From the IMG/VR virus record IMGVR_UViG_3300022468_000772, positions 86,224-150,223 of that record: 64,000 nt of DNA, one strand, 5' to 3'. Source of the DNA: a virus (Duplodnaviria > Heunggongvirae > Uroviricota > Caudoviricetes). The notes beneath the pieces were generated by a model. It was not told the origin of the DNA, made no database searches, and saw nothing but the letters and a program-made list of their open reading frames with translations. The number at the start of each line of letters is the position of its first letter. Positions within the stretch are counted from its first letter, which is position 1. The position numbers and the translations under genes were made by a program. Below are positions 23,521 to 63,187 of this stretch, piece by piece.

Positions 23521-23556
23521 CACCTTTTGAATTTCGATGATTGAATTATAGCACAG
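23521..23556 (-). promoter_or_regulatory. early promoter plus conserved leader motif (copy)
   Basis: rc: CTGTGCTATAATTCAATCATCGAAATTCAAAAGGTG. Confidence 0.5.
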
Positions 23557-23559
23557 TTT

Positions 23560-25194
23560 TTAAGAAAACAACCACTTTATAAATGGGTCGCCACCACCGC
23601 CGAATTTATTCAAATCCAGTTCATGTGGTTTTAAATCAATAGAATCTCTTCCATCATCAATAAAGCCAAATGGCAGCATGTTTTCATCAATGTATTGCTC
23701 TGTCCTTTTAGCCAGAATTGCTCGAATGTTTGTATCGGTCAATTCGGCAAAAAGAGGCTGCTTTGTCAACCAAGCAAACAACCACAAACAGGTCATCAAA
23801 TCATCGTTAATTTGTTCGTCTTCGGCAGCATATGATGCACCTTTCTGAGCGAAAACACCAAACTCTTGCAGAATTTTGTGGGAGTTGATAATCATCTGAT
23901 CCAGTTCGACAAGACCTTTCAAAGTTGCGCAGCCGATTGATTTAACTTTCTTTGTGGTACGAACGCCCGGATACCCTCTCCCCTCATTCAGAACATCCTT
24001 GTACGTGAAATACAAATTCTCATACTCAAACTCGTAGAACAAATTCGAAGAAACCATCTCACCTAGATCATTCACTTCGATCAACACATATGCATCATTA
24101 TAGCTCTTCGCCACGGTGTAAATCAGATACGGATAGCTCTCAGGTGAAATTTCGTTATCCTTGTAGATAGCAACAATCTTATATGGAATTGTAGTGATAT
24201 CGAACACCACAAACGCAGAATAATCCAAGTGGCGACCACGTGAAGTATCCACTGTAATAACGTAGCTATGACCTTTTTGAGGCTGTTCGAAATACTCCAA
24301 TTTATCCTTTACGAAAATTGGTTCTTGTGTTGTCAAACGAGTTAGTGTAGCACCATTCAAAAGTGTTTTACTCGAACCTTGGAACTGGCATTCAACTTCC
24401 TGCAAATACTTCAATTCACCCAATGTCTGAAGCTGATCCACACGCCATTTTTCATCACGTGTTGGGTTCTCATACCACTCAGCAGCAACAGGGAAAAATC
24501 CGTTGGTACCTTTCTCGGCTTCGACCCACATTTTGTGATAGTGGTTCAAACCTTTAGGGGTTGATGACAGATATATACGGGTGTCTTTACCAGACGAAAT
24601 TGTAGGGAAAACGGATGTGAAGAATTCTTCCGCAATGTTTGGCGGAATGAAGGCTGTTTCATCGATATACAGGGCAGATACGGAGAAACCACGGATCGCG
24701 TTTGGAGAGGTTGCTGCAGTGATGATGCCGCTACCGTTGGAGAGTTCGATGGAGCCTTTGTTCCACTCTTTCACGCCGGGCTGCATCCAGAATGGTAAAT
24801 TCTCATACGAGAATTGGATACGACTCAAAATTTCACGCGCCACCGCAGCCTTGTTAGCCATGATACCGACCAACTTCACATCATTGAAAATAATGAACCA
24901 CAGGAAGAATGCTGCAGTCGTTTGTGTCTTACCTTGCTGGCGACCAATCTTACAGATCACTTTACGGTTATTCACATAAGCGTCAATAATTCGCTCTTGG
25001 AATGGATACAACTGGAAAGGGATAACCCCACGATCCACGTGTACGATTTTTACATAGGTCTTGATAAAGTAAATTGGATCAGCAGCACATTTAGCCCATT
25101 CATCTAATTGCCATTGTGTGTAGTTCATGACTACGCCATGGTTCTTTAAATTCTTGTTGCCGTTGTAATATAAATTTTGATTCTGAGTTGCCAT
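23560..25194 (-). CDS. 17: terminase large subunit
   Basis: Collinear with T4 gp17: EWAKCAADPIYFIKTY, Walker A GRQQGKTQT, YIDETAF, nuclease-domain VDTSRGRHLDYSAFVVFD; start at the M of MATQNQ. Confidence 0.88.
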   Translation of the reverse strand: MATQNQNLYYNGNKNLKNHGVVMNYTQWQLDEWAKCAADPIYFIKTYVKIVHVDRGVIPFQLYPFQERIIDAYVNNRKVICKIGRQQGKTQTTAAFFLWFIIFNDVKLVGIMANKAAVAREILSRIQFSYENLPFWMQPGVKEWNKGSIELSNGSGIITAATSPNAIRGFSVSALYIDETAFIPPNIAEEFFTSVFPTISSGKDTRIYLSSTPKGLNHYHKMWVEAEKGTNGFFPVAAEWYENPTRDEKWRVDQLQTLGELKYLQEVECQFQGSSKTLLNGATLTRLTTQEPIFVKDKLEYFEQPQKGHSYVITVDTSRGRHLDYSAFVVFDITTIPYKIVAIYKDNEISPESYPYLIYTVAKSYNDAYVLIEVNDLGEMVSSNLFYEFEYENLYFTYKDVLNEGRGYPGVRTTKKVKSIGCATLKGLVELDQMIINSHKILQEFGVFAQKGASYAAEDEQINDDLMTCLWLFAWLTKQPLFAELTDTNIRAILAKRTEQYIDENMLPFGFIDDGRDSIDLKPHELDLNKFGGGGDPFIKWLFS

Positions 25195-25195
25195 A

Positions 25196-25230
25196 AAAAA
25201 AGCCCCGAGGCTTTCGACCAAGGGGCTTAC
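25196..25230 (-). terminator. rho-independent terminator after gene 32
   Basis: Minus strand: AGCCCC...GGGGCT stem followed by TTTTTTT. Confidence 0.5.
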
Positions 25231-25257
25231 ATAGTGAAAGTTAATAGTATTTAACTA

Positions 25258-26232
25258 TTAATCCTCAATCAGCGATTTAAAAAACTCGTCGTCATCACCA
25301 GCATCAGACATTGTTGGTACAGGTGGAGCCGACTTAGCTTTGGCAGGAGTTTCCTTAGCCTTAGATGGTGCTTCAGAGGCTTGTTTTGCAAGCCCTTCCA
25401 TTTCATCCAAAACGCCTTCTACGCCTTTTTCTTCAGGTGCAGCAGCCTTGGCCTTACCTTTACCTTTAGGATTGGATGCTACCTCTCCAGTGACCACCAG
25501 ATAACGTTGCTTCAGGTCATCGTAAGACTTGAATTTATCAGGTGCGATTTCAAGGTTAATGTCATACAGACCCTTGAACAATTCTTCAATCTTATCTTCA
25601 TCGCCTTCAAACAAAGGCTTACGCTTCAGGAATGTAGAACCGTCAAAGTTAGGAAACTTTTCAACGATGGTTTGCTTCAGAGAGAATGCAGCACCTTCGT
25701 AAGGATCGAAAGCATTAACTGCTTCAGCGGTTTCCATTTCTCCATCTTCGTTTTCTACAGCTTCAGGTTTAGCTGCGGCAACGATCTTGTCAAAAATAGT
25801 TTTGCCATATTTGAACAAGAAGACCTTACCGTTATTTTCTGGGTTTGCAGGGTCTTTCACAACCAGAATGTTGGAAATGTATTGCAGCTTACGCTTTTGA
25901 CGCTGAACAATTTTCTTGTTTGCATCAATACCAGTGTTCCAAAGCTCACGGTTCACTTCCGCAATGTAATCGGTTTCACCAATCGTGGAGAGAGAATTTT
26001 CGATATACCATTGTTGGGTACTTGGGTCTTTGAACGCATGGGAGTACATACGCACAAATGGGAAGTCTTCGATATTTTTAGAAGGCAAAAATCGGATAAT
26101 AGCAGAACCATTTCCTTCTTTGTCTTTGGTCAATTTCCAATAATTTTTAGAGTCTTCACTGTAATCCTTTTTCGCATTGACAGTATCAATTTGAGAAAGC
26201 AAAGAAGCGAAGTTCATTCCGAATTTAGACAT
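25258..26232 (-). CDS. 32: single-stranded DNA-binding protein
   Basis: [22 protein letters not shown] aligns with T4 gp32 [41 protein letters not shown] aligns with [19 protein letters not shown]; acidic C-tail. Confidence 0.92.
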   Translation of the reverse strand: [324 protein letters not shown]

Positions 26233-26300
26233 GTAATATTTCCTTAATGTATGTAGTATTAAAAAGTATGTTTAAGTGCCGGTACAATACATACCGGTCA
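26233..26300 (-). promoter_or_regulatory. gene 32 5' leader: hairpin plus AU-rich unstructured tract (candidate gp32 autoregulatory operator)
   Basis: mRNA: GACCGGUAUGUAUUGUACCGGC hairpin, then ACUUAAACAUACUUUUUAAUACUACAUACAUUAAGGAAAUAUUAC AUG. Confidence 0.35.
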
Positions 26301-26373
26301 CATGTATTTATGGGTAAAAATTTCCCCACAAATTAGTTTACTATTGACCTTTTATTTGTCAACAGTGATACAA

Positions 26374-31085: not shown

Positions 31086-31511
31086 TTACATGCAACGCCA
31101 CATCATAACACACCATTGTGTATCAGTTACATCGACTGGTGCATACAGCGCACCTTCTCCATCCCAACCATCTTGATCATGCAAAGGGTGTTCAAAAGAT
31201 GCACGTTTGAATTTTACCACAACACCAGTGATGTTGGAAGTGATTTCCAATTCATCGGGCCAAGAACCGCCATCATAGTGAAAAGACATCACCTTGATTT
31301 TCTTGTTCAGTTTTGCATCAGCCATGTTCAACTTTTCAACAGTTTTCTTTGGTGCTGATTCAATCATTTTCTGTGCAATCTTTTCCAGTGTACGAATTTC
31401 TGTGGAGTAGAAGTCGTTCATCTGATCAACCGAACCAACACGGACATCTTCACCGTTGATTTTGGCCCAAACTTCGGTTTGCATGTTGGCGGCTGGCTTT
31501 TGGAAGATCAT
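31086..31511 (-). CDS. hypothetical protein
   Basis: 141-aa ORF downstream of a promoter/leader copy. Confidence 0.45.
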   Translation of the reverse strand: MIFQKPAANMQTEVWAKINGEDVRVGSVDQMNDFYSTEIRTLEKIAQKMIESAPKKTVEKLNMADAKLNKKIKVMSFHYDGGSWPDELEITSNITGVVVKFKRASFEHPLHDQDGWDGEGALYAPVDVTDTQWCVMMWRCM

Positions 31512-31520: not shown

Positions 31521-31556
31521 CCTCTTTTGCGTTTCGATGGAAGAATTATAACATAG
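31521..31556 (-). promoter_or_regulatory. early promoter plus conserved leader motif (copy)
   Basis: rc: CTATGTTATAATTCTTCCATCGAAACGCAAAAGAGG; lies immediately after the terminator. Confidence 0.5.
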
Positions 31557-31580
31557 AAAAAGGCCCCGAAGGGCCTTTTG
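31557..31580 (-). terminator. bidirectional rho-independent terminator
   Basis: AAAA AGGCCCCGAAGGGCCT TTTT. Confidence 0.6.
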
Positions 31581-33609: not shown

Positions 33610-34042
33610 TTTTATCCTCCCATGGTAATACAGGGTCAGCGATCCAGCGCCGACGCATACGATCCATTGCCTCTGCAGGCACATTGTGAATAGAACCGAA
33701 AGAGCCATGCACGGAAATCACTTGCGGGATAATTCCAAGTTGCAGTGCAATTTCAAAGTAAGGGTTCAGTTCACGCTGAGTAGTGAAAGTGTTGGATACA
33801 ACAACACTCCAACCTTCTTGCAGCTTTTGCGCCACATTAGACTCACACCAGTGATGTGCAGCACCGAGCTTATTCAGGTCGAAGTTGTAGTTACCTTGCT
33901 TGTCATAGAAGTACATGTCAGCTTCATAATGACGCCATCCACCATCCATAGCAATCTTTCGGGCAATGGTACTTTTACCCGAGCCCGGCAAACCCCTCAC
34001 AATCACAAAGTAGGGTTTGGTCTTACCATCCGATGCTTGCAT
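33596..34042 (-). CDS. P-loop kinase (candidate polynucleotide 5'-kinase)
   Basis: Walker A VRGLPGSGKST directly at the N-terminus, as in the T4 Pnk kinase domain; 148 aa. Confidence 0.5.
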   Translation of the reverse strand: MQASDGKTKPYFVIVRGLPGSGKSTIARKIAMDGGWRHYEADMYFYDKQGNYNFDLNKLGAAHHWCESNVAQKLQEGWSVVVSNTFTTQRELNPYFEIALQLGIIPQVISVHGSFGSIHNVPAEAMDRMRRRWIADPVLPWEDKNGLV

Positions 34043-34238
34043 AATAAATTTCCTTCTTGTAGTTGAAAGCAGCACGAACTGCTTCTGGATATACGACATA
34101 CCACAAATTGTCCAATGCAGACATTGTGGTTCCACGAACTGTGCAACGACCTTTACTGTCTGTCTCACGCATCAACTCTTTGTGCATTGCTTCAATGATT
34201 TGTTCGCCAATTTTGATTGCGTCAGACTTAGTGATCAT
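34023..34238 (-). CDS. hypothetical protein
   Basis: 71-aa ORF. Confidence 0.35.
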   Translation of the reverse strand: MITKSDAIKIGEQIIEAMHKELMRETDSKGRCTVRGTTMSALDNLWYVVYPEAVRAAFNYKKEIYYASIGW

Positions 34239-34269
34239 TTTGAACCTCGTTTGAATTTAGATGTATGGA

Positions 34270-35232
34270 TTATACACCAATTTTGTACGGTTTCAAAATA
34301 TCTGTCTTATTTTCCACAAACAAGAAGTCATCCAAGAAATCTCGTTTCACTTCAGACAGTCGCAAATAATTAAGTGACGCATATTCACGAAACCAGCCGG
34401 ATGTCAGAGTCGTACAAATCTTCTGCAACGCTTTCCGGTACAGTTCTTGCATGTAATCACCATCAAATCCAACACCATCTTCCCGATAGCGGTTAATTCG
34501 AATACTTTTGCGGTAAGGCAAATACCCACGCTCCAAAGCAATCACCCAAGCCTCTTCCATGACACATGCATCTTTGACAGCATCAGGTGCATTCTCAAAC
34601 AGATCACCAGATGATAAAACTTCACCCTTAGCGATATGCATATACGCAGGCTTTTCGCCTATAGCAATAGCAGCATGAATTGAGTCATGATCATAGATAT
34701 ATTGTACACCATCATTCGAAAAGAATTCAGATTTACTGACATTCAGTTTGATAGGTGGTCGATTATATGTCTCTTTCTCTCGCAACTCCAGAATCTGTTT
34801 CAGCGGTTCAGAAACTCTAGACTTGTACTGCTTTGACATGTAGGTTTTCAGCTTCTCCATATTTTTATGGAAATGCATAGAATCCCGATACCGGTGTGAT
34901 TCACGGATAACATACATCAAGCTAAGTGGTGCCACATTATAAAGTTTTTCAGGATTCCCTACAGAATCCATCAAATCAAGAATTGCAGCACCAGAAGAAC
35001 CTTTGAAAGCCAGTTCAACTTCGATAATACTAATCTTGTTTGTTTCGTGTTTGACCCGAATAACAAGATGGTTGCTGCTAATCGGATATTGTTCGATGAT
35101 CTTTCCACCAAAGCCATCGAGTAATTGCTTCACAGCATTAGGCCGAACAATAAAATCCCAATCCCGATTTTCATCGATATCGAAATAGTTGTATTCAGCA
35201 CGTGATCCGATTAGAACAGCAGTATTTTTCAT
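34270..35232 (-). CDS. putative pol-beta-superfamily nucleotidyltransferase-fold protein
   Basis: LIGSRAEYNYFDIDENRDWDFIV fits hG[GS]-x7-DxD, with a later IIEVELA acidic strand; 320 aa with a helical C-terminal domain. Confidence 0.3.
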   Translation of the reverse strand: MKNTAVLIGSRAEYNYFDIDENRDWDFIVRPNAVKQLLDGFGGKIIEQYPISSNHLVIRVKHETNKISIIEVELAFKGSSGAAILDLMDSVGNPEKLYNVAPLSLMYVIRESHRYRDSMHFHKNMEKLKTYMSKQYKSRVSEPLKQILELREKETYNRPPIKLNVSKSEFFSNDGVQYIYDHDSIHAAIAIGEKPAYMHIAKGEVLSSGDLFENAPDAVKDACVMEEAWVIALERGYLPYRKSIRINRYREDGVGFDGDYMQELYRKALQKICTTLTSGWFREYASLNYLRLSEVKRDFLDDFLFVENKTDILKPYKIGV

Positions 35233-36923: not shown

Positions 36924-37859
36924 TCACAGAGTAGAGTTCAACAGATTGCGCATGTATTCCAGACGGTCTTGCTCAGGCATTACCTTAAACAATTCATCAT
37001 TACGCAGTTTTTCAATCAGAGGATAAAATTCTTCCTCAACACGAGCCATGTTCAGTGCCATGATATCAGCCTTACGAGCCACCATCTTTTGGAACAGGTA
37101 AGCCTTAGACTTGATCTTGATCATTTCACCTTTAGTGTAGTTGAAGATCACATAACCTTCATGTGGTGCCTCACGTGCCATTTTCACAGCATCTACGAAC
37201 CGCATATCAGGAATAGGGTCATACCACTCAGACACTTCAGCATACTTTGCAATTTCTTGAAAAGCAGAATCACCATAGGTCAGCATCAATCGTGCATTGT
37301 CGAACGAATAGAATTCGGTACCTTGGTAAATAATTGAGAGTAGATAAGCACCATACTTTTCAGGAATGATGTGTGGATCGTCAGGATGGCAAATCTCAAA
37401 CATATAGGTAGTTTCAGGGCACAGGGTTGATGGATCAATATCCTTCAGATACGTTTCGGCATATCCAACAAAATCAGAATCCAGAGAGCCAGTAGTACCA
37501 ATGAGCAGCTTACCGTTGTAAACACTCAAGGATGCCATGAATCCATTCACCTTGCGAGAAACACCCACAAATGTCCGTGGATGCCAGTCTACACCAGCAC
37601 CGTTTTCTTGGTAGTTGTAGATTTTCTTGAATGGTAATTGAACCACATTGAAATCAGCATCCACAACCAAACCACGGCAGTGACGCAGCATTTCGTTTTG
37701 ATCCCACAAATTGTTGAAAAATACACGACGAGTGTACTTCAGTACAGACAGACCTTGATAGCGCTTAGACTCTTTACGAGTCACCAGACGAGGATTGTTC
37801 AGAACGAATTCTTTGAGATTTTCACGGTCAATACCGTAGTTGTGCGAAGTGAGTTCCAT
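36924..37859 (-). CDS. rnlA: RNA ligase 1 (T4 Rnl1 / gp63-like)
   Basis: LRHCRGLVVD aligns with T4 LECRGIMFE; LPFKKIYNY with RPMEKFFNL; motif I SRKVNGFMASLSVYNGKLLIGTTGS with [24 protein letters not shown]. Confidence 0.7.
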   Translation of the reverse strand: MELTSHNYGIDRENLKEFVLNNPRLVTRKESKRYQGLSVLKYTRRVFFNNLWDQNEMLRHCRGLVVDADFNVVQLPFKKIYNYQENGAGVDWHPRTFVGVSRKVNGFMASLSVYNGKLLIGTTGSLDSDFVGYAETYLKDIDPSTLCPETTYMFEICHPDDPHIIPEKYGAYLLSIIYQGTEFYSFDNARLMLTYGDSAFQEIAKYAEVSEWYDPIPDMRFVDAVKMAREAPHEGYVIFNYTKGEMIKIKSKAYLFQKMVARKADIMALNMARVEEEFYPLIEKLRNDELFKVMPEQDRLEYMRNLLNSTL

Positions 37860-37864: not shown

Positions 37865-37900
37865 ACCTTTCGAGTTTCGATAAACGAATTATAACACATG
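37865..37900 (-). promoter_or_regulatory. early promoter plus leader motif (copy)
   Basis: rc: CATGTGTTATAATTCGTTTATCGAAACTCGAAAGG. Confidence 0.5.
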
Positions 37901-37903
37901 TTT

Positions 37904-38113
37904 CTAGCGTTTTACAACGGGGACACAAAATTCCTCAGTTTGCCTCTTTGCTAAAAACTGAGACTGTCCAGCAGGAATTTTTGTTTCGCATTCTTGCTTT
38001 GTTGGGTATATCTCTACATAAGTCGGTACACAAAATCGTGTACATGCAACAAAAATAAGTGCCCAACCCATATCAGAACAGAAACTTGTCTGGTGAACCG
38101 TTTTTGTAATCAT
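37904..38113 (-). CDS. small Cys-rich hypothetical protein
   Basis: 69-aa ORF. Confidence 0.3.
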   Translation of the reverse strand: MITKTVHQTSFCSDMGWALIFVACTRFCVPTYVEIYPTKQECETKIPAGQSQFLAKRQTEEFCVPVVKR

Positions 38114-40622: not shown

Positions 40623-40862
40623 TTAGACGTTGATCTGAATATCGAAGCCATCAATTGTAGCACACAAACCAGTGGCGCATGCAGTAATGTCATCGCTATT
40701 GCGCATACGTTCAAGTTCAGCGAGGGCTTTCTGCACAGCAAGGTTAAAGAATACCGCACTACCTACACCGTCACGAATTTGCGCAACTGTAGTGTAGAAC
40801 GATACTTTGCCCGTGATGATTCGAACTTGGCGAGTCTTGGAGAATTTAAATGGTTTTGTCAT
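40623..40862 (-). CDS. hypothetical protein
   Basis: 79-aa ORF downstream of a promoter copy. Confidence 0.4.
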   Translation of the reverse strand: MTKPFKFSKTRQVRIITGKVSFYTTVAQIRDGVGSAVFFNLAVQKALAELERMRNSDDITACATGLCATIDGFDIQINV

Positions 40863-40871: not shown

Positions 40872-40907
40872 CCTCTTTTGTGTTTCGATGGGAGAATTAT
40901 AACACAG
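40872..40907 (-). promoter_or_regulatory. early promoter plus leader motif (copy)
   Basis: rc: CTGTGTTATAATTCTCCCATCGAAACACAAAAGAGG. Confidence 0.5.
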
Positions 40908-40909
40908 TT

Positions 40910-45542: not shown

Positions 45543-45548
45543 GAGATA

Positions 45549-45582
45549 CCTTTCGTGTTTCGATAAACGAATTATATCAGAA
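45549..45582 (-). promoter_or_regulatory. early promoter plus leader motif (copy)
   Basis: rc: TTCTGATATAATTCGTTTATCGAAACACGAAAGG. Confidence 0.45.
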
Positions 45583-45584
45583 AT

Positions 45585-46382
45585 TTAAACTTCTACAACT
45601 TCAATCGAGAAATATTTTGGTAGTGTCTCATAAATCACATATCCACGTGGGTTGCTAAGAATCCGAGTACCGTGAATGAAGTAATCAACCGGAAAGTGTG
45701 TATGACCATGAATCCAAACACTAGGCCATCCAGCACTGATTACATCTTCCATATCGGTACAGCAATAGAATGGTGTCAAACGTGTAATATTTGACTCCGA
45801 GCGATAATGTGGTGCATGATGTGTAAAAACAACACGATTCTTCATGCCAGTATTGTGATCAGTCAAACGCTCATATAAAAAGTTTTTATGCTCGTAATGC
45901 TTTTCAATACCTTTTACTGGTGTAAATGTACTTTCATCAATTTCCCTGTAATCATTCATTGCATTACCAGAGATAATAGCCATTGGATCAGATTTGTTCA
46001 AATCTGTCCAGAGAGTGGCACCAATTAGATGACAGTCACCTTCCATATGCTCAAGCATTTCTCCAAAGTCGATATTTGTAATACCAGCCTCTCGGAAATA
46101 ATCGTAAACAATATTTTTTGCTTCGAAGAATGAGGAACCGTAATACTCGTGATTCCCAGAAATCCAAAGGACACGTTTGTATTTGGTTGAAACACGATCT
46201 AAGAAATCTCGAATGCTGTGACTCATATATGTGTCGTACATACCGGGTCGAAGAAAACGTATTTCGCCCACATCACCAGCCAGAATCAAAACATCCGCCT
46301 CTGGAAATTCAAAGTCGGTTGGTATGCCTGCAGTTTTATCAATGTCCAAATGCAGGTCTGAACAATAAGCAATTTTAATCAT
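45585..46382 (-). CDS. calcineurin-like metallophosphoesterase (second copy)
   Basis: YCSDLHLD (DxH), LAGDVGE (GDxxE), ISGNHEYY (GNHE), GHTH. Confidence 0.6.
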   Translation of the reverse strand: MIKIAYCSDLHLDIDKTAGIPTDFEFPEADVLILAGDVGEIRFLRPGMYDTYMSHSIRDFLDRVSTKYKRVLWISGNHEYYGSSFFEAKNIVYDYFREAGITNIDFGEMLEHMEGDCHLIGATLWTDLNKSDPMAIISGNAMNDYREIDESTFTPVKGIEKHYEHKNFLYERLTDHNTGMKNRVVFTHHAPHYRSESNITRLTPFYCCTDMEDVISAGWPSVWIHGHTHFPVDYFIHGTRILSNPRGYVIYETLPKYFSIEVVEV

Positions 46383-51730: not shown

Positions 51731-52384
51731 TTATTGTGTTGCTTGCCAGCGACGGAAGTTTTCTTCGGCCTTCTTATTGTACTCGACAAAAGCGCCAGTG
51801 TATAGATTTTCCCATGTTTGGAAACTAACTTTGATACCCTCTTCTACACTCCAGATGTCGGCAAACATTGTTTCATCGACAGCAGGTGTGTACACAAATG
51901 TGGTGCAATAAAAATCTCGTCCATCACCACCAACCACAATCTCGCTGAAGATGGGTACGAACAATTCAGAACGCAGGTTCAGACCAGTTTCTTCAGCAGT
52001 CTCACGCACGATGGCTTGATGGATAGTCTCACCAGCGTCTTGTTTACCGCCCGGCAGCGCAAGAATATCCGTGTTTCGGCGTGTTGTTGTCAACACCTTA
52101 CCGGATGTGCTATGAATGATCACGGCTGCAGAGTTAGCGAGTGTACGCTTACTTGTATCTACATAAGTTTGTTGAGGGATAGCCGGTGTCTCAGATTTAG
52201 CCAAGACAAAGTAGACTTCAATATTGTCTTCGCGCTGAAAATCTGCGCATGCGATACCTTCACAAAAGTTTTTTCTTTCACCAGTAGTATCAAAATGACA
52301 GATACTACATGGATTTGGTGTGCTTCCAACGACAATTGGGATTACTTTAACTCCACCCCAAGTTTCAACAGCTAAATTTTTCAT
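51731..52384 (-). CDS. Nudix hydrolase with N-terminal Cys cluster
   Basis: Nudix box GGKQDAGETIHQAIVRETAEETGL (Gx5Ex7REUxEExGU); N-terminal CSICH...CEGIAC. Confidence 0.75.
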   Translation of the reverse strand: MKNLAVETWGGVKVIPIVVGSTPNPCSICHFDTTGERKNFCEGIACADFQREDNIEVYFVLAKSETPAIPQQTYVDTSKRTLANSAAVIIHSTSGKVLTTTRRNTDILALPGGKQDAGETIHQAIVRETAEETGLNLRSELFVPIFSEIVVGGDGRDFYCTTFVYTPAVDETMFADIWSVEEGIKVSFQTWENLYTGAFVEYNKKAEENFRRWQATQ

Positions 52385-52398: not shown

Positions 52399-52424
52399 GA
52401 AAAGGCACCGGTTAGGATGCCTTT
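52399..52424 (-). promoter_or_regulatory. hairpin plus U-tract in the Nudix 5' leader, after the TAXI gene stop
   Basis: Minus strand: -10-like TGTGATATAAT, then AAAGGCATCCTAACCGGTGCCTTT + TCTTTT, then RBS GGAGAG and the ATG. Confidence 0.3.
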
Positions 52425-52442
52425 ATTATATCACAATTTTGA

Positions 52443-53541: not shown

Positions 53542-53576
53542 CCTTTTGTTGTTTAGAAGACCAGATTATATCACCG
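53542..53576 (-). promoter_or_regulatory. early promoter plus leader motif (degenerate copy)
   Basis: rc: CGGTGATATAATCTGGTCTTCTAAACAACAAAAGG. Confidence 0.4.
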
Positions 53577-53855
53577 TTTGGTGGTAACTTTTGTCTCGGA
53601 GCGAATATTGTTGAAAATAAATGCCAAGATCAAGTACACAACAAATGCTTCCCAGAATGTGATTTCTCGGCTAAAGCCAAAGATACCAACTACCACAATA
53701 CTCCATGCATGCATAGTCAGCCAAGCCATGACGGATGCAATAGCAGCCGCAATCGCCAGAACTATGCTAAACGCGCCGATGTAGACAGCCGCTAAAGCAC
53801 CCAGATTCCCCCACTTCCAAGAGTTGTTTTTCCAGTATTTTTTGAACTTTTCCAT
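53571..53855 (-). CDS. membrane protein (2-3 TM)
   Basis: Hydrophobic stretches LGALAAVYIGAFSIVLAIAAAIASVMAWL and IVVVGIFGF. Confidence 0.45.
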   Translation of the reverse strand: MEKFKKYWKNNSWKWGNLGALAAVYIGAFSIVLAIAAAIASVMAWLTMHAWSIVVVGIFGFSREITFWEAFVVYLILAFIFNNIRSETKVTTKR

Positions 53856-55104: not shown

Positions 55105-55353
55105 TCATACTCGAACCCACTTCGGATAAATCTCACCGGCTTCAATTATACCACGGTATTCTGGTATTAGTTGTCCTACAGGGCAATAATCAAAATCTTT
55201 ATGAATGGCTACATATTCGATCTTGCCAGTGGCAAAGTTTTCCTGTGCCCGTAGAACAAACATACCATGGAATAGGTTTGACCCCTCACCCTCATGCAAA
55301 GTTCGCACGAAATCTTGAGGCAGTTCAAACCGACCAAATTTACGCATCGTCAT
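55105..55353 (-). CDS. hypothetical protein
   Basis: Start chosen at an internal M to limit overlap with the upstream gene. Confidence 0.35.
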   Translation of the reverse strand: MTMRKFGRFELPQDFVRTLHEGEGSNLFHGMFVLRAQENFATGKIEYVAIHKDFDYCPVGQLIPEYRGIIEAGEIYPKWVRV

Positions 55354-55531
55354 ATTTTTGCTCTTTTTTATTTTTTCGATTGTCATCAACAATCATGGTA
55401 TTACCAATTATCTTTATTGGGGCTTCCATGGCAAGTTCCATAGCAGCCTGTACCATTAGGTATTGGTTTGGTTTAGCTTGTAATGGCATATCAACAATTT
55501 TCAAACTATCAGGTGTTGCGATCAGTTTCAT
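55340..55531 (-). CDS. hypothetical protein (64 aa)
   Basis: MKLIATPDSL...; RBS GGAG; downstream of a promoter copy. Confidence 0.35.
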   Translation of the reverse strand: MKLIATPDSLKIVDMPLQAKPNQYLMVQAAMELAMEAPIKIIGNTMIVDDNRKNKKEQKYDDA

Positions 55532-55763
55532 GTTTAACTCCGTAAATTGTGGTAATAAGATTATAACACGATTTGATGGTTTGGGTTTGGGCATCATATT
55601 GCTTTTGTGTCAAATAACGCTTCAAACCCATACAGCTATCTTTCAGAACATATGATGGCTGCTTTGCATACATGTCGTTGATCAACAGAAGACCAGCTTT
55701 AACCTTTTCTTCTGCAGGCTTCTTCGATTCGAAAATAAGCCTTAGATCATTCAGCGTAGTCAT
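55509..55763 (-). CDS. hypothetical protein
   Basis: 84-aa ORF. Confidence 0.35.
   Translation of the reverse strand: MTTLNDLRLIFESKKPAEEKVKAGLLLINDMYAKQPSYVLKDSCMGLKRYLTQKQYDAQTQTIKSCYNLITTIYGVKHETDRNT
55539..55570 (-). promoter_or_regulatory. early promoter -10 (partial leader copy)
   Basis: rc: CGTGTTATAATCTTATTACCACAATTTACGGAG. Confidence 0.35.
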
Positions 55764-56270: not shown

Positions 56271-56498
56271 TTAAATGAGTGAATATGTGTAGTTGGTATT
56301 ACCAACTTGATTGTTCCAACTCTCGATAATCATCTTTGCTGCAGAAAACCTTACACTACCGTCATCAGCTACGATAACAGAAGGATGTTGCCGAAATTGA
56401 ATTTGTCGGAATTTTTCAACGCGAGTGACAATTTTTCCATCGAAACACTTAGCGTTGACTTTGTATCCGGCAACTCGTGGCTCACGTTGAATTTTCAT
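56271..56498 (-). CDS. hypothetical protein
   Basis: 75-aa ORF downstream of a promoter copy. Confidence 0.4.
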   Translation of the reverse strand: MKIQREPRVAGYKVNAKCFDGKIVTRVEKFRQIQFRQHPSVIVADDGSVRFSAAKMIIESWNNQVGNTNYTYSLI

Positions 56499-56506: not shown

Positions 56507-56543
56507 CCTCTTTTGTGTTTCGATGGGATGAATTATAACACAG
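56507..56543 (-). promoter_or_regulatory. early promoter plus leader motif (copy)
   Basis: rc: CTGTGTTATAATTCATCCCATCGAAACACAAAAGAGG. Confidence 0.5.
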
Positions 56544-56547
56544 AAAA

Positions 56548-56585
56548 CGGGGGAATTTTCTTTATTTTCGAAAATTCCCCGTTTT
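56548..56585 (-). terminator. rho-independent terminator-like hairpin (bidirectional)
   Basis: GGGGAATTTT / AAAATTCCCC stem around loop CTTTATTTTCG; T-runs on both sides. Confidence 0.5.
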
Positions 56586-57573: not shown

Positions 57574-57580
57574 GATAAAT

Positions 57581-57638
57581 TACCTTTCGATTTAAGTTAA
57601 ATTCTGCATCGTTTGCAGTGATTGAATTATAACACAGT
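57581..57638 (-). promoter_or_regulatory. early promoter plus extended leader (copy)
   Basis: rc: CTGTGTTATAATTCAATCACTGCAAACGATGCAGAATTTAACTTAAATCGAAAGGTA. Confidence 0.45.
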
Positions 57639-57725
57639 TTTTAGCGTTAAACAAAATTATTTTAAAAATCTTTTGTCTCAATCACCGCATCGCTACAGTA
57701 ATCGTATTGTACCACACATTTTTTC

Positions 57726-58738: not shown

Positions 58739-59260
58739 TCAAACCTCGATTTTCGATTGATTAACTTGACGCGCAGACATGCGGTATTTGGCACCGGTAT
58801 CAACATCAGTGACATACCAGCCACGACGACCAACATTTTCATCAAGTTTGTACTTGGAATTGTTGTAGGAAATAACTGTACCAACATTCATTTTCACTTT
58901 GGCTTTCTTGTCTGCGTGATATTCACGAACCTTTTCACGCCACTTCAAAGCATATCCACCCTCACCTTCGAGTTCGCTTGCTTGGCTCAGAAGACTCAGA
59001 GGACAGTCGTAGTGGTATGGGCCAGAAAATTCATCCATAGACTTGTAGCCCCAACCCATGTTGCGACCACCACCCATCATCAGACCCAACCAGATGTATT
59101 TCTTGCCGGTAGCAATGGTTTCCACCAAGCCCCAGAAGTGATTACCCACGACACGACTGTCAACCAGACGATACCCCTCAGAGAAAAACTTATCGCTGCG
59201 GAAACGTGCCACTTGATCAGCACGTTTGAAACCTGTAGACATCGCGAAAGAGTAACCCAT
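58739..59260 (-). CDS. hypothetical protein
   Basis: 173-aa ORF downstream of a promoter copy. Confidence 0.45.
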   Translation of the reverse strand: MGYSFAMSTGFKRADQVARFRSDKFFSEGYRLVDSRVVGNHFWGLVETIATGKKYIWLGLMMGGGRNMGWGYKSMDEFSGPYHYDCPLSLLSQASELEGEGGYALKWREKVREYHADKKAKVKMNVGTVISYNNSKYKLDENVGRRGWYVTDVDTGAKYRMSARQVNQSKIEV

Positions 59261-59268: not shown

Positions 59269-59302
59269 CCTTTTGAATTTCGATGAATGAATTATAGCAT
59301 AG
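59269..59302 (-). promoter_or_regulatory. early promoter plus leader motif (copy)
   Basis: rc: CTATGCTATAATTCATTCATCGAAATTCAAAAGG. Confidence 0.5.
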
Positions 59303-59642
59303 ATTTTTCTTGATTTATCTTATCTGAGATAAATTTTAAAAAATCGTTGTCATTCAGTTTGTCATTTTTCCTTTGAATTTCGTACAACTCAGTGCCTGTA
59401 AAACCATATTTTATCAATTTCATAAGGATACGCTGGATCGTGCCATTTGAAGATTGAATGTTTAACGTCATGCTTCCAGTGCGATCTAGATAATCCAATT
59501 CATTTTCATCCAACAAGCAACCTAGTGCGCAGTAGCATAATTGATCTTTTTCATAGTTGAACCGGCGATAAAAATATGATACTCTGTTCCCACTCAGGGT
59601 AAGTTCCAAAATTTTCTTGAGTGCTTCGATTTTAGTTGACAT
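59292..59642 (-). CDS. hypothetical protein
   Basis: 116-aa ORF. Confidence 0.4.
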   Translation of the reverse strand: MSTKIEALKKILELTLSGNRVSYFYRRFNYEKDQLCYCALGCLLDENELDYLDRTGSMTLNIQSSNGTIQRILMKLIKYGFTGTELYEIQRKNDKLNDNDFLKFISDKINQEKSML

Positions 59643-60684
59643 TGTTAATTACCTCTTTCATTTGCTTCAAACGTTCTTCGATGGTTCCGGTAAGAATTGT
59701 GTATTCTAACCCAAAATCCTGCAAAACATCACAGTAATAATTATGAACACTCTGACGGAAGTTTTCATCACGGCGTGTTCCATCCTGATCAAATGGGATA
59801 TCTGGAACACAGATAAAGATATGCGCGTAACGATGCATGTCTTGAAAGTTGTATGACCTTAGAAAACGGTCTACACGACCAAATATAACCTCAGAATAAA
59901 CGGAAGTAGTAACCGAACATGTGTCACAGATCACAAAGTCTTTACTCGTGTCATAGGCTCGTTGAGCAGCAATGTATTCCTGTTGGCGTTGAACCTCTGC
60001 AATTTGGCGCATATTTTTGAACACGAGTTTACCATCGGTTTGTTCCCACAATTCGCGACCATATTCAAAGACAGGCACAATATCAAATTTCTTAGAAGCA
60101 CGTTGCACGATGGTTGTCTTTCCAGAAGATTCGCCACCGAGGATCAGAATGCGCGGAATAAAGGTAGCAAACACTTCTGGATGCACCCAATCTTCGATAT
60201 CACGGTAGTTCTTTTCAATCATTTCACGCAGCATTGTACCGGATACTTTGTTCACTTCGCGGTCTTCATCAACCATAGAGAACTGGCATTCTGGAGAAAT
60301 TGTTCCAGCCAACATATAACCATATGACTCAGAAGCAAAAACAACATCAACACCATCACCATCAGGGAAATATTCTCTGATCTTGTCACGGCAGAATTCA
60401 CGATGGATGAATGCCGGTTCGTCATCAAGTGGAATTGAATCAATTTCTGGATTCAATACAACTGCTTCCAGACGCCCAGAATCAATTTCATTCTTGTAAA
60501 TTGTGTCGAGCCAGTATTGGCGTGTCGTGCTGTCACAGCCGAAGAATTCTTCAGATGTGTAGCTCAAAACAAACACTTGTTCGCAGCGTTCCAGTGCAGT
60601 TTCGATCACATATTGATGCCCTTTGTGCAGTGGTGCAAATTTACCAACCACAAAGCCACGTTTGAATTCTTTATTTGTTGTCAT
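59632..60684 (-). CDS. nadR: NadR-like bifunctional NMN adenylyltransferase / ribosylnicotinamide kinase
   Basis: N-terminal (H/T)xGH nucleotidyltransferase motif VGKFAPLHKGHQ; C-terminal Walker A GGESSGKTT as in NadR RNK domains; 350 aa, no HTH. Confidence 0.65.
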   Translation of the reverse strand: MTTNKEFKRGFVVGKFAPLHKGHQYVIETALERCEQVFVLSYTSEEFFGCDSTTRQYWLDTIYKNEIDSGRLEAVVLNPEIDSIPLDDEPAFIHREFCRDKIREYFPDGDGVDVVFASESYGYMLAGTISPECQFSMVDEDREVNKVSGTMLREMIEKNYRDIEDWVHPEVFATFIPRILILGGESSGKTTIVQRASKKFDIVPVFEYGRELWEQTDGKLVFKNMRQIAEVQRQQEYIAAQRAYDTSKDFVICDTCSVTTSVYSEVIFGRVDRFLRSYNFQDMHRYAHIFICVPDIPFDQDGTRRDENFRQSVHNYYCDVLQDFGLEYTILTGTIEERLKQMKEVINNVN

Positions 60685-60687: not shown

Positions 60688-60870
60688 TTAATCACCACGT
60701 TTTAACAGGTTTCGAATCTCATAGATGCGTTGCTCTATTCCTCTGCGAACCATATCAGCTTCAGCACTTCCACCGATAGCATCATTCTGGCGTTCTAGGA
60801 ATTTCAGAGCGCGTTGCATGGCTACTACATGTGTTTTGGTTATTCCGAGTTTCGGTTCAGCAGAGTTCAT
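60688..60870 (-). CDS. hypothetical protein
   Basis: 60-aa ORF downstream of a promoter copy. Confidence 0.3.
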   Translation of the reverse strand: MNSAEPKLGITKTHVVAMQRALKFLERQNDAIGGSAEADMVRRGIEQRIYEIRNLLKRGD

Positions 60871-60876: not shown

Positions 60877-60904
60877 CCTTTACTTCAACTAGATTATACC
60901 ACAG
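60877..60904 (-). promoter_or_regulatory. early promoter -10 (copy)
   Basis: rc: CTGTGGTATAATCTAGTTGAAGTAAAGG. Confidence 0.4.
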
Positions 60905-61475
60905 ATTCCAGTCGTTGAATCTTCCGCCACTGGAAATAAGAGACAATTGCGTTGATCCAGAAGAAACCATACAGGATCGAAGTCAGATACAACTCACGTG
61001 ACCAGAACAAAGGTACGCTGATAGTGTTCACAATCAACCAAATACCCCAAGATTCAATACGCTTGCGCATCAGCATAAATTGACCAACAACACTCATTGT
61101 CAGTACAACAGAGTCTACAAAGGGTGCATAGGCGTCTGTAAACTTGTGCAGGAGCATTCCATAAGCGACAGCAACCAAAATTGCCGATACCAGATACGTC
61201 ACAAGTTGGTCAGATGGTGTATTGGTGATCTTGAGTACACCATTGTCGTTCTTTGCATTCCAGCCGATCCAGCCAATCACGCCTGTGATCAGGAAGAATA
61301 CCTGCAGAGTCGCATCCGCATATAGCTGGTTGTTGAAAAACAACACACCGAACAAAGCAGACGAAACAATACCTGTCCACCAAGTGTGGATGTTATTGCG
61401 ACCAGCCAAAAAGATACACAATGCAGTCATGATGTTGGCTGCAAGTTCGAGGGGTGTCCAAGTAAAAATGTTCAT
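60894..61475 (-). CDS. pnuC: PnuC-like nicotinamide riboside transporter
   Basis: Polytopic membrane protein; LYADATLQVFFLITGVIGWIGW matches the PnuC signature LYA...LQ.FF...YGWY.W; adjacent to nadR as in bacteria. Confidence 0.6.
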   Translation of the reverse strand: MNIFTWTPLELAANIMTALCIFLAGRNNIHTWWTGIVSSALFGVLFFNNQLYADATLQVFFLITGVIGWIGWNAKNDNGVLKITNTPSDQLVTYLVSAILVAVAYGMLLHKFTDAYAPFVDSVVLTMSVVGQFMLMRKRIESWGIWLIVNTISVPLFWSRELYLTSILYGFFWINAIVSYFQWRKIQRLESVV

Positions 61476-61494
61476 GATAAATTTCCTTTTGATT

Positions 61495-61872
61495 TCAGTT
61501 AGTTTCAAATTTAGATTTCAATCGCAGGTATTCTGCATACTCAGGGTCATTATCTCGCTTGATAGTTGCAATAGTTTTTTCAACAACACTATCGGTGATA
61601 AAAGAACTATTATAGCTCATGACAGTGGTAACAAACGCTTTGAGAATCACTTCAACAATTTCTTTGGTGATTTCTGGCTTTACAGCGTGTTCCAGAATAG
61701 ATGCGGATTCATCATCCACTTCAAACCATGTCTCTTCGCCATAATTTATACTTGTCTTTGTATCCCATAACGCCCAAATTTTATGCCTATCGATACGAGT
61801 GACTGTACCTGTATCTATATTGGTAGGCATCTTGTAAGCTACTTTGTCACCTACACTATATTCTGTTGTCAT
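61495..61872 (-). CDS. hypothetical protein (paralogue of 58316..58702)
   Basis: See paralogue entry at 58316..58702. Confidence 0.45.
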   Translation of the reverse strand: MTTEYSVGDKVAYKMPTNIDTGTVTRIDRHKIWALWDTKTSINYGEETWFEVDDESASILEHAVKPEITKEIVEVILKAFVTTVMSYNSSFITDSVVEKTIATIKRDNDPEYAEYLRLKSKFETN

Positions 61873-61873
61873 A

Positions 61874-62092
61874 TCAATCTTTCAAGTTAAATGGAGTTTG
61901 ATCAATAGAAGAAATTGTTTCGTTCACGAATTCCACAGCGATTTCCATGGATTCTGCATCATCTTCGAGTTTATTCACATAAAGACCGGATAAGGTGCTT
62001 TCTGGAATGTAGTAGTAGCCACGACCACGAACCAGACGTTCGGTGCGACCAGACTTCTTCAGGAGTTTGTTAATAGTGGCAAGTGTTCCCAT
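61874..62092 (-). CDS. hypothetical protein
   Basis: Start at the M of MGTLATINK, immediately after a promoter copy at 62093-62110. Confidence 0.35.
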   Translation of the reverse strand: MGTLATINKLLKKSGRTERLVRGRGYYYIPESTLSGLYVNKLEDDAESMEIAVEFVNETISSIDQTPFNLKD

Positions 62093-62110
62093 GATTGAAT
62101 TATACCACAG
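62093..62110 (-). promoter_or_regulatory. early promoter -10 (copy)
   Basis: rc: CTGTGGTATAATTCAATC then ATG. Confidence 0.4.
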
Positions 62111-62351
62111 TTTCGACTTTTTCATAGAATTCAATACCGCGCCAGCCGCCACCAACAAGGGCCATGTCACCATCAATCTTTTTTACGATACCTGTCCAGA
62201 TACCACCATGACCAGTGTGCATGAGATACTTACCATCAACCAATTGTTCAGGTAAGTAACGGCAGACGACTTTTCCGTAAGTTGGGTTATATCCAACCAT
62301 CTTGTCACCACGGATTGCAACGGTATCACCAACTTGGATTTGAGCCATCAT
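62100..62351 (-). CDS. hypothetical protein
   Basis: 83-aa ORF downstream of a promoter copy. Confidence 0.4.
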   Translation of the reverse strand: MMAQIQVGDTVAIRGDKMVGYNPTYGKVVCRYLPEQLVDGKYLMHTGHGGIWTGIVKKIDGDMALVGGGWRGIEFYEKVETVV

Positions 62352-62355
62352 TTTA

Positions 62356-62389
62356 CCTTTTGAATTTCGATAATTGAATTATACCACGG
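62356..62389 (-). promoter_or_regulatory. early promoter plus leader motif (copy)
   Basis: rc: CCGTGGTATAATTCAATTATCGAAATTCAAAAGG. Confidence 0.5.
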
Positions 62390-62390
62390 T

Positions 62391-62903
62391 TTATTCGTCG
62401 CGGTTAATAATTTCAAACATTTTCCAAAACAAAGGAAAATCAGAAGCACGTTTCAATGTTGGCATCATCAGACGCTTCTCTGGAAAGTACGTGCCATAGG
62501 CAAACTTCGGATCGTAGCGTTCAATCGACTTGGTGTTGTCGAAAATATCGCAAATACGAATCTCTAGAACATCGCGAAATTGATCAGAAAGCCACTGTCG
62601 GTCAATAGCTTGACGAGTAGCGCGATTGCCATCTTCTGGCTTTGATGGATTTGTCATGCCTTTGACCATGCGCAACACATCATTACCAAAGGCAGCAATA
62701 TCTTTTTCTGGGCAATTAGTATCTTCCAATACGTCATGCATCCATGCTGCGCAGATTTGATCTTCGGTGCCGCCATTGTCTCGAATCAGTTTTGCAACTG
62801 CAGCGGGATGAACGATGTAAGGTTCACCTGTGTACTTACGTACTTGATGTTGGTGCCAAAATGTGGCGAGTTCACGTGCCCGTTTTATTTTTAGAGTTTT
62901 CAT
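62391..62903 (-). CDS. small alarmone hydrolase (SpoT/Mesh1-like HD-domain (p)ppGpp hydrolase)
   Basis: YIVHPAAVAKLI ... ICAAWMHDVLEDT matches the RelA/SpoT HD motif Y..HP..VA..L...AALLHDVVEDT; 170 aa. Confidence 0.6.
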   Translation of the reverse strand: MKTLKIKRARELATFWHQHQVRKYTGEPYIVHPAAVAKLIRDNGGTEDQICAAWMHDVLEDTNCPEKDIAAFGNDVLRMVKGMTNPSKPEDGNRATRQAIDRQWLSDQFRDVLEIRICDIFDNTKSIERYDPKFAYGTYFPEKRLMMPTLKRASDFPLFWKMFEIINRDE

Positions 62904-62905
62904 AA

Positions 62906-63148
62906 TTAAAGAATTGCGAGAATGTCAGATGGAAGCATATGTGGGTGTGGATTACTATCACACCGGAGAATCCAATTATCAGGTTTGTCCAACGCTACGA
63001 CGATGCGACCTCTCCCAGAAAAAGTTGACACCAACCAATTTTGCTTATACCAATAGAAATGATCCTCAAAACAAACAATTGTGCCATCGCCCAATTTGGT
63101 TTTGACACGTTCACCGAGGCGTAGTGTTTTGATGATGTTTTTGTTCAT
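62906..63148 (-). CDS. hypothetical protein
   Basis: 80-aa ORF downstream of a promoter copy. Confidence 0.4.
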   Translation of the reverse strand: MNKNIIKTLRLGERVKTKLGDGTIVCFEDHFYWYKQNWLVSTFSGRGRIVVALDKPDNWILRCDSNPHPHMLPSDILAIL

Positions 63149-63152
63149 TCTT

Positions 63153-63187
63153 CACCTTTTGAATTTCGATGGATGATTATAGCACAG
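63153..63187 (-). promoter_or_regulatory. early promoter plus leader motif (copy)
   Basis: rc: CTGTGCTATAATCATCCATCGAAATTCAAAAGGTG. Confidence 0.5.

Follow-up and report, generated by a model that had tools for sequence, protein, structure and literature searches.

Repeated extended -10 promoter-like cassettes precede small genes in an uncultivated T4-like phage

The minus strand of a 64,000-nucleotide (nt) stretch of viral DNA (IMG/VR record IMGVR_UViG_3300022468_000772, positions 86,224 to 150,223; hereafter the window) contains a repeated element of roughly 45 bases, in which the extended -10 sequence TGnTATAAT is joined to a short leader and a Shine-Dalgarno sequence. The source of the window is an uncultivated, deep-branching T4-like myovirus. 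The element is a variant of a regulatory cassette that is already known in T4-like phages, and it is very probably not an operator for the translational repressor RegA. The copies are probably extended -10 promoters for the main sigma factor of the host, each coupled to a standard translation start, that work like the promoter-early stem-loop (PeSL) cassettes of T4-like phages.

An earlier note, made from the window sequence, had listed at least 17 copies of a promoter fused to a conserved leader. All 17 listed sites carry TGnTATAAT on the minus strand, and each listed number marks the Shine-Dalgarno end of the copy. The first T of TATAAT, by which single sites are named below, is at 23550, 31550, 37893, 40901, 41830, 43619, 44583, 45576, 53570, 55565, 56537, 57631, 59296, 60898, 62104, 62383 and 63181. 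The copies all precede genes on the same strand, as had been stated. Exact matches to TGNTATAAT (TGnTATAAT) number 21 in the part of the minus strand from 23.5 to 63.2 kilobases (kb), compared with one on the plus strand. Most of the minus-strand matches (17/21) are 16-52 nt upstream of a start codon that is preceded by a Shine-Dalgarno-like sequence. TGNTATAATTC occurs 12 times compared with 0.17 expected occurrences, and ATCGAAAYNCAAAAG (at most one mismatch) occurs 10 times compared with 0.18 expected, both exclusively on the minus strand. ATCGAAA (at most one mismatch) is found 5-7 nt downstream of 12 of the 21 TGNTATAAT sites, against a background of 0.97% per position. Exact ATCGAAA heptamers are present 5-7 nt after TATAAT at 10 of 24 sites on the minus strand and at 0 of 8 on the plus strand.

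Copies were counted with a profile hidden Markov model (HMM) made from the window copies, where a full copy is one with E <= 2.5e-7. The profile recovers 12 complete copies of promoter and leader, and TATAAT is exact in all 12. The earlier count is therefore correct for the extended -10 element and too high for the complete cassette, as the remaining sites are partial or have a different leader. The two partial copies (E about 5e-4) are 57631, which has a hairpin inserted in the leader, and 62104, which has an ATG where the leader would begin. The open reading frame (ORF) behind the latter would be a candidate for a leaderless mRNA, since its ATG is exactly where ATCGAAA normally begins. Approximately six further extended -10 elements have a different or decayed leader (44583, 52430, 53570, 55150, 55565 and 60898). 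The first of these had been called a degenerate copy, and it does retain the extended -10 next to a degenerate leader. The list was also incomplete, as it lacked one full copy (34245-34286) and the extended -10 elements at 52430 and 55150. A full copy of the leader is never found without TATAAT upstream; the leader does not travel without the promoter.

In the 12 full copies, the general build is TGnTATAAT, 6 (5-7) nt, ATCGAAA(C/T)N(C)AAAAGG, 6-9 nt and ATG. Upstream of the -10 element there is a weak A-tract followed by cTGTG, and most extended -10 elements read TGTGn. No -35 box is detected in the aligned copies, which contain approximately 0 bits of information at that position; only 4 copies reach 4/6 matches. 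Scans of the window for canonical -35/-10 pairs return 34 sites compared with 45.6 in shuffled sequence, and 46 compared with 44.7, which is no excess. Downstream of TATAAT there is a TC, then four weakly conserved and mainly pyrimidine bases, and then ATCGAAA(C/T). The spacing from TATAAT to ATCGAAA is 6 nt, except for one copy with 5 nt and one with 7 nt, and this fixed distance places the A of ATCGAAA at the canonical start position. The deduced 5' untranslated region is 20-27 nt long and A/C-rich, with ATCGAAAC as its leader block. Every full copy has AAAGG or AAAGAGG 6-9 nt before the ATG. The leader had been described as invariant as far as the AGG, but AAAAGG/AAAAGAGG is the Shine-Dalgarno context that is also seen at the promoter-less genes of this phage. 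Because AAAAGG is generic, the cassette-specific block consists only of TC-N4-ATCGAAA(C/T), from about -6 to +8 of the predicted start.

The cassettes occupy gaps of 40-55 nt between small genes that share a strand and are mostly ORFans. The gene upstream ends in a stop codon 7-13 nt before TATAAT or, in five cases, in the TAA within TATAAT. Strong upstream hairpins are present only at 31550 and 56537 (Table 1). At the other 18 sites, the upstream folds range from -2 to -13 kcal/mol and are not followed by a T-run. The claim that several copies follow a terminator hairpin thus applies to two clear cases. The leader itself is predicted to be unstructured. The mean minimum free energy (MFE) of the predicted leader folds is -3.8 kcal/mol, compared with -5.5 kcal/mol in 48 control initiation regions of other genes. 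Relative to shuffled sequences, the mean z-score amounts to +0.68, and most predicted folds leave the first ~13 nt unpaired. No conserved RNA structure is found in the leader, which is less structured than shuffled or control sequences. In Rfam 15, no family matches the cassette at gathering score, and the only match in the window is a tRNA-Met at 225-297. The reverse complement of the leader, as an antisense partner would carry, is not found elsewhere on either strand of the window.

The description of these sites as extended -10 promoter-like elements, coupled through a short leader to a Shine-Dalgarno sequence and ATG, is borne out by sequence and comparison, and the same evidence supports the promoter/leader reading. 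The RNA polymerase of the host, with its primary sigma factor, would bind cTGTGnTATAAT and would not need contact with a -35 element, as judged from the consensus and from what is known of extended -10 promoters. Transcription would begin at the A of ATCGAAA, given the 6 +/- 1 nt spacing. The resulting mRNA leader is predicted to be open, and the ORF behind each cassette would be transcribed and translated from infection onward, as the gene content suggests. The genes served appear to be mainly small ORFans and accessory enzymes, as is the case for T4-type early promoters. When 10 cassette-proximal ORFs are compared with PHROG, 6 are unmatched, 3 match only families of unknown function, and 1 is an RnlA-like RNA ligase. 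The near-identical copies of 40-50 base pairs (bp) may also act as homologous recombination junctions by which ORFs are added, removed or swapped, in line with published descriptions of PeSL cassettes. For +1 to +8 (AUCGAAAY), the likeliest grounds of conservation are common descent with copy exchange in combination with selection, which would favour efficient initiation, escape from the promoter and an open 5' end. Of all the steps, this one is the least certain.

Bacterial extended -10 promoters (TGn, or TRTGn, the '-16 region') do not require a -35 element. The cassettes resemble them in the cTGTGnTATAAT consensus and in the likely start at a purine that follows 7 nt downstream. The bacterial promoters are not known to share a transcribed region, whereas the promoter here is welded to one particular leader.

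PeSL cassettes are known from the T4-like phages RB49/phi1, T4/PST and KVP40/nt-1 (Arbiol et al. 2010, PMC2839356; Comeau et al. 2014, PMC4122927). Each is made up of stem-loop, sigma-70 promoter, Shine-Dalgarno sequence and ATG, and they mediate modular shuffling (PMC2839356, PMC4122927). Recombination between PeSL copies produces mini-circles. The window cassettes are similar in several respects. They are short, conserved and intergenic, recur many times in the variable parts of a T4-like genome and always follow the orientation of the genes. They contain a sigma-70-type promoter, and their 3' end is formed by the Shine-Dalgarno sequence and start codon of a small ORF, which is often an ORFan. 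Some ORFs that lie between two copies in one genome are missing from a close relative, and half-cassettes occur. There are also differences. The -35 box is absent here and an extended -10 (TRTGn) is present instead, the defining upstream stem-loop or terminator is found at only 2 of ~20 copies, the upstream stop codon is mostly inside or beside the -10, and the first 8 transcribed bases are strongly conserved, which is not reported for PeSLs. As the -35 box and, mostly, the stem-loop are lacking, the cassette is classified as a variant of PeSL and not as a member.

A resemblance to T4 early promoters, which the earlier note had proposed, is loose only. T4-type early promoters have a conserved -35 element (GTTTAC) and an A-rich UP-like region, and they precede novel ORFs in T4-like genomes (PMC1524935). 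The early promoters of T4 and T4-like phages (PMC1524935; PMC2988021) and the window cassettes share a high copy number, greater uniformity than host promoters, early-type or novel ORFs behind them and a preference for pyrimidines just upstream of the start, and an ADP-ribosyltransferase gene is present in the same genome. They differ in that the -35 element (GTTTAC/TTGACA) and the UP-like region are uninformative in the window copies, where the -10 is extended by TG.

The cassette is also present in related sequences, designated here by L numbers. These were obtained by pattern scans of IMG/VR and JGI metagenome contigs and as a graded series retrieved through DNA ligase. In L001, L002, L004 and L006, the ~40-nt cassette (85-97% identity) is the sole nucleotide similarity to the window. 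In the graded series, the DNA ligases are 85% (L025 and L026), 75% (L028) and 62% (L031) identical in amino acid (aa) sequence to that of the window. All four contain the cassette exclusively on the gene strand, with 13 copies on the gene strand and 0 on the other in L025, 11 and 0 in L026, 10 and 0 in L028, and further copies in L031. L032 (ligase identity 47%) has extended -10 elements with another repeated start, TGAGACTTCAA, and no such extended -10 elements are found in L033 (43%). Orthologous copies retain the extended -10, ATCGAAA and AAAAGG, and vary in the spacer and in leader positions 8-10 (for example, 23550 and L003 12169). A scan of genome contigs returned two matches, one in Mucilaginibacter and one in a Bacteroidota single-cell assembly. 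Both lack the TG, the Shine-Dalgarno sequence and the ATG; they are therefore judged to be due to chance and give no clue to the host.

Several copies are located at junctions where gene content differs between relatives, and in several places the similarity between genomes stops exactly at the edge of a cassette. In L003, two copies flank two extra small ORFs at a place where the window has a single copy (31550). The 166-aa ORF at 45042-45542 has two flanking copies in L025 and is missing from L028, where one copy is left; in the window, the ORF is present and the second copy is absent. At 40901, the window, L025 and L028 are near-identical from -30 through the Shine-Dalgarno sequence and then diverge abruptly. 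Past this point the window has no extra ORF, and a 61-aa or 109-aa ORF is inserted in L025 and L028. At 41830, the L025 sequence is unrelated upstream until 8 nt before TATAAT. The degenerate copy at 44556-44586 is missing from L025 together with its 85-aa ORF. The PnuC gene is preceded by a half-cassette in the window and by a full cassette at its ortholog in L010. In total, 23 of 58 indel breakpoints are within 30 nt of a cassette, compared with roughly 8-17% for random positions by our own estimate.

A number of points weigh against the reading of the cassettes as PeSL-like promoters of the host sigma factor. The breakpoint count is not clearly above the ~26-33% that we estimate for random gene junctions. 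As the excess is not robust under this gene-junction null, the recombination role is based on the individual clean cases, and the use of copies as recombination junctions is shown by example and is not established statistically. The extended -10 copies without the conserved leader at 52430, 53570, 55150 and 57631 persist in relatives, which indicates that the leader is not required for promoter function. Promoter activity, start site and time of expression are all read from sequence, and the match to the host sigma factor is assumed. The conservation of +1 to +8 exceeds any known requirement of a sigma-70-type promoter. Finally, a group of phages with a different promoter has the same ATCGAAA start, which hints at a specific function.

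This group (L013-L019; for example, IMG/VR 3300003277_000168) has a G+C content of 44% and contains PhoH, DNA ligase, thymidylate synthase and dCMP deaminase genes. Its cassette, ATTTTACTTTTATT-N8-GG-TATAAT-AACTT-ATCGAAA...AAAGGAAAGAAAAATG, occurs 3-4 times per 10 kb. The promoter is of the form TTTACT-N17-TATAAT, with ATTTTACTTTTATT and TATAAT separated by a 17-nt spacer and no TG. The transcribed part is common to the window cassette, with the same ATCGAAAYNNRAAAGG start 5 nt after the -10. The block from +1 to +8 (ATCGAAAY, perhaps with YCRAAAG) could be a dedicated cis-element for a global regulator other than RegA, an explanation that is possible and, on balance, rather unlikely. In one form it would be an RNA 5' tag that a phage or host protein binds or cuts, and that controls the stability and processing of the mRNA or the shut-off of its translation. 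In another it would act as DNA, as an operator over the start site that turns the promoters off once the early period has passed. A stability or processing element had also been offered as an alternative in the earlier note; the analysis gives it no support and does not contradict it. ATCGAAA is about as informative as the -10 hexamer in copies from unrelated contexts, and it is kept in the orthologous pair above, whose members differ in the spacer and in positions 8-10. The predictions leave the leader single-stranded, so that it would be accessible, and a second promoter-like class in the window (TTGACA-N16-TAGAAT, below) has no conserved transcribed region. In coliphage Seurat, TGTGCTATTAT-N6-ATCGAAACACAACAGAGG is found before one gene; this match, with E=0.03 and a single site per genome, could be due to chance. 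The match in L013-L019 came out of a search with this very pattern as its query. There is no candidate for the factor, and several conserved promoters of the extended -10 class are without the block. The different repeated start in L032 is what copy-and-paste within a lineage would give. The leader copies form linked subtypes (ACAAAAGAGGTA, TTCAAAAGG and NCGAAAGGTA), which point to descent and not to site-by-site selection. In a further form of this idea, which is likewise doubtful, 5'-AUCGAAAY would be no by-product of copying but a dedicated early-message tag for a trans-acting factor, as RNA 5' end or as DNA operator at the start site. The tag would be common to two only distantly related phage groups with different promoters, which would presumably exploit the same host machinery.

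The Seurat site is a single TGTGCTATTAT-ACATAC-ATCGAAACACAACAGAGG before gene 54 (L035, Escherichia phage Seurat, KM236243.1 40478-40512), and it is kept across most of 97 matching phage records, chiefly from Seurat-like coliphages. A link with the NAD-related genes of the phage, through capping by nicotinamide adenine dinucleotide (NAD), is not favoured. Promoters preferred for NAD capping are reported to have a purine in position -1 and either G or C in position +2, and the pyrimidine at -1 and U at +2 of the cassettes do not fit this preference. The A1 transcript of phage T7 also begins with AUCGA, which is a curiosity and is not used here as evidence.

Every motif copy is within the block of small ORFs on the minus strand (23.3-64 kb). 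This block contains the genes for the large terminase, gp32, two RNA ligases, DNA ligase, NUDIX, DUF932, NadR-like, PnuC and ADP-ribosyltransferase proteins and dozens of small ORFs. No copy is found in the replication core, the plus-strand stretch up to 23.3 kb with the gp44, gp62, regA, gp43, UvsX and gp41 genes. This distribution is not congruent with the suggestion of the earlier note that the leader (AUCGAAACACAAAAGAGG or AUCGAAACACAAAAGAGGUA RNA) is the translational operator of the RegA protein encoded in the window, and that explanation is very improbable. The T4 genes 44, 62 and regA are the classic RegA targets, and the window genes 44 (2702-3634), 62 (4083-4487) and regA (4531-4926) are all without the motif, as is gp43. 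The regA gene is present and intact, as had been stated, and the leaders are predicted to be unstructured. T4 RegA represses ~30 early mRNAs, and its sites are single-stranded (PMC3014915). Known RegA sites are over the AUG or immediately 5' of it, are AU-rich and have no clear consensus, and the ligand obtained by SELEX is AAAAUUGUUAUGUAA (PMC3014915). The leaders resemble the RegA operators of T4 and RB69 in belonging to single-stranded 5' regions of early mRNAs in a genome that contains regA (PMC3014915). The block in the window differs in that it contains C and G, is strongly conserved and is upstream of the Shine-Dalgarno sequence, 12-19 nt from an AUG whose surroundings are not conserved. 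Its distance is fixed to the -10 and variable to the AUG, so it is tied to the promoter and not to the start codon. It is missing at promoter-less internal genes, except for the half-cassette before PnuC. No regA homolog is found in the fetched stretches of the L013-L019 group, which is weak evidence because these contigs are partial.

The cassettes could instead belong to a different temporal class that needs a phage factor, such as a middle promoter with an activator, a late promoter with a gp55-type sigma factor, or a promoter for a phage RNA polymerase. This is quite improbable. The T4 late consensus TATAAATA is absent from the 64-kb window and the lineage's other promoter classes are undefined, which leaves some room for such an assignment. 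The window also has the separate, -35-containing TTGACA-N16-TAGAAT class before replication genes, which makes two classes of different timing plausible. TGnTATAAT is nonetheless the textbook extended -10 of primary sigma factors, and the cassettes stand in front of ORFans and genes for accessory enzymes and not in front of structural genes. No MotA-type box (TGCTTtA) is found near -30, as the aligned copies contain no information upstream of -22. TATAATTC and TATAAATA differ at 3 of 8 positions. A late-promoter reading is rejected, as TATAAATA is found on neither strand of the window.

The second promoter-like class, TTGACA-N16-TA(G/T)A(A/G)T, is present at 187-214, 2615-2642, 6901-6928 and 11549-11576 on the plus strand and at 26335-26362 on the minus strand. 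These sites precede the tRNA-Met, gp44, gp43, gp41 and gp32 genes and have neither a TG extension nor a conserved transcribed region. Four of the five are intergenic, and the gp44 site is at the 3' end of the upstream ORF. This pattern suggests two promoter classes with different gene sets. ATAAATA, which is shorter than the T4 late consensus, has 7 occurrences on the plus strand and 2 on the minus strand, among them one before regA (4492) and one before gp32 (26311). The rough expectation is ~14 per strand, so there is no excess.

The copies might also form a dispersed repeat, selfish or neutral, that has no regulatory role, for example a miniature mobile element or a homing scar. They are ~45 bp long, scattered, located at mosaic junctions and present or absent between orthologous genes, as such a repeat would be. 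The repeat explanation is nevertheless exceedingly improbable. The copies have no terminal inverted repeats or target-site duplications, and in every genome examined all of them point the same way as the genes on either side. Each copy ends in a Shine-Dalgarno sequence that is followed by an ATG at working distance, and the best-conserved positions coincide with the promoter -10 and the ribosome-binding site.

Under the favoured reading of PeSL-like promoters, the sites in Table 1 form a regulatory map, in which the early transcription units are probable ones, of a T4-like lineage that is deep-branching and uncultivated. They extend the idea of promoter cassettes that double as shuffling junctions to another build, with no -35, usually no stem-loop and a stop codon in the -10. 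The conserved transcript start is the one feature that goes beyond current knowledge, and if it is a recognition element, it would be a testable handle on global early-message control. For annotation, the motif is well suited to mark the true starts of small ORFs in this clade.

Table 1. Promoter-like cassettes and associated features of the window. E is the profile HMM value except for regA; ORFs are those predicted to be driven by the element.
Feature	Position	Strand	E or MFE	ORF and remarks
regA, translational repressor	4531-4926	+	PF01818 E=2.9e-37	Plus-strand replication block
Full cassette TGTGCTATAAT-TCAATC-ATCGAAATTCAAAAGG	23521-23562	-	E=2.5e-11	55-aa ORF 23347-23514; begins 9 nt past the stop codon of the large terminase gene; orthologous copy L003 12169
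Full cassette	31521-31558	-	E=5.8e-10	141-aa ORF 31086-31511
Terminator-like hairpin AAAAGGCCCTTCGGGGCCTTTT	31558-31579	-	MFE -16.6 kcal/mol	Adjoins cassette 31521-31558
Full cassette GGTGTATAAT-CCATAC-ATCTAAATTCAAACGAGG	34245-34286	-	E=2.5e-7	71-aa ORF 34023-34238; TAA in TATAAT is the stop of upstream gene 34270-35232
Full cassette	37865-37906	-	E=2.7e-10	RnlA-like RNA ligase 1 gene 36924-37859
Full cassette	40872-40912	-	E=2.2e-11	79-aa ORF 40623-40862
Full cassette, leader AACGAAAC...	41801-41840	-	E=2.6e-10	69-aa ORF 41582-41791
Full cassette, leader ACCGAAACTTAAAAGG	43592-43631	-	E=8.8e-10	98-aa ORF 43287-43583; TAA in TATAAT is the upstream stop
Degenerate copy TGTTATAAT-CAATTA-ATTGAATTAAAAAGG	44556-44586	-		85-aa ORF 44291-44548
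Full cassette	45548-45587	-	E=4.2e-9	166-aa ORF 45042-45542
Extended -10 TGATATAAT	52401-52433	-		Terminator-like hairpin and T-run directly after, then NUDIX gene ATG; no ATCGAAA leader; arrangement kept in L025 (8593); hairpin could be a 5' stabilising hairpin or an attenuator
Extended -10, decayed leader CTGGTCTTCTAAACAACAAAAGG	53542-53579	-	E=2.4 (-10 part only)	47-aa ORF; kept in L025
Extended -10, unrelated leader	55539-55575	-		63-aa ORF 55340-55531
Full cassette	56507-56546	-	E=1.9e-9	75-aa ORF 56271-56498; orthologous copies L025 4231, L028 5740, L031 502
Terminator-like hairpin AAAACGGGGAATTTTC...AAAATTCCCCCGTTTT	56544-56585	-	MFE -18.4 kcal/mol	After DUF932 gene; adjoins cassette 56507-56546
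Extended -10 and TCAATC, hairpin CTGCAAACGATGCAG, AAATCGAAAGG, DUF932 ATG	57574-57643	-	E=8.6e-4	Long leader with 5-bp hairpin CTGCA-AACGA-TGCAG at predicted 5' end, then AAATCGAAAGG; kept whole in three genomes (window, L025 2085, L028 4650)
Full cassette	59269-59307	-	E=2.9e-10	173-aa ORF 58739-59260; TAA in TATAAT is the upstream stop
Extended -10, short unrelated leader	60877-60909	-		60-aa ORF 60688-60870
Half-cassette, leader-like TGAAATCAAAAGGAAAT, no -10	61476-61495	-		Precedes PnuC gene
Extended -10 and TCAATC, then ATG: TGGTATAAT-TCAATC-ATG	62091-62114	-	E=3.4e-4	72-aa ORF 61874-62092
Full cassette	62355-62395	-	E=5.4e-10	83-aa ORF 62100-62351
Full cassette, 5-nt spacer	63153-63192	-	E=2.7e-9	80-aa ORF 62906-63148; just downstream of ADP-ribosyltransferase gene

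No isolated phage has a DNA polymerase that is more than 41% identical to the one encoded in the window. No nucleotide match to isolated phages is found when 8 kb of the window are searched by megablast, and sensitive blastn and tblastn searches return distant T4-like and cyanophage matches only; the window therefore has no annotated close relative. Exact-sequence look-ups of four window proteins give no match, and the window RNA ligase and DUF932 proteins, used as queries for related loci, give no match in IMG/VR.

Several accessory genes of the window are connected with NAD and ADP-ribose. These are the ADP-ribosyltransferase gene (63195-63926), PnuC (60894-61475), a NadR-like kinase domain (59632-60684), NUDIX (51731-52384) and NADAR (3631-4083). 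NADAR domains are tied to the reversal of ADP-ribosylation, and the NADAR-domain gene is on the plus strand between the clamp-loader genes 44 and 62.

An IS605 OrfB/TnpB-type gene is located at 293-1564 of L033, within an accessory-gene region of this distant relative. In the window, a GIY-YIG/NUMOD3 homing-endonuclease gene (5892-6836, minus strand) is on the opposite strand to the DNA polymerase gene and just upstream of it. It is missing from the strain-level relatives L020 and L021, whose RegA is identical. In L028 (15333-17444), a 263-aa ORF of opposite strand interrupts the RNA ligase gene and leaves it as one OB-fold ORF and one ligase ORF; the flank of the 263-aa ORF resembles positions 6825-6952 of the window, beside the homing endonuclease.

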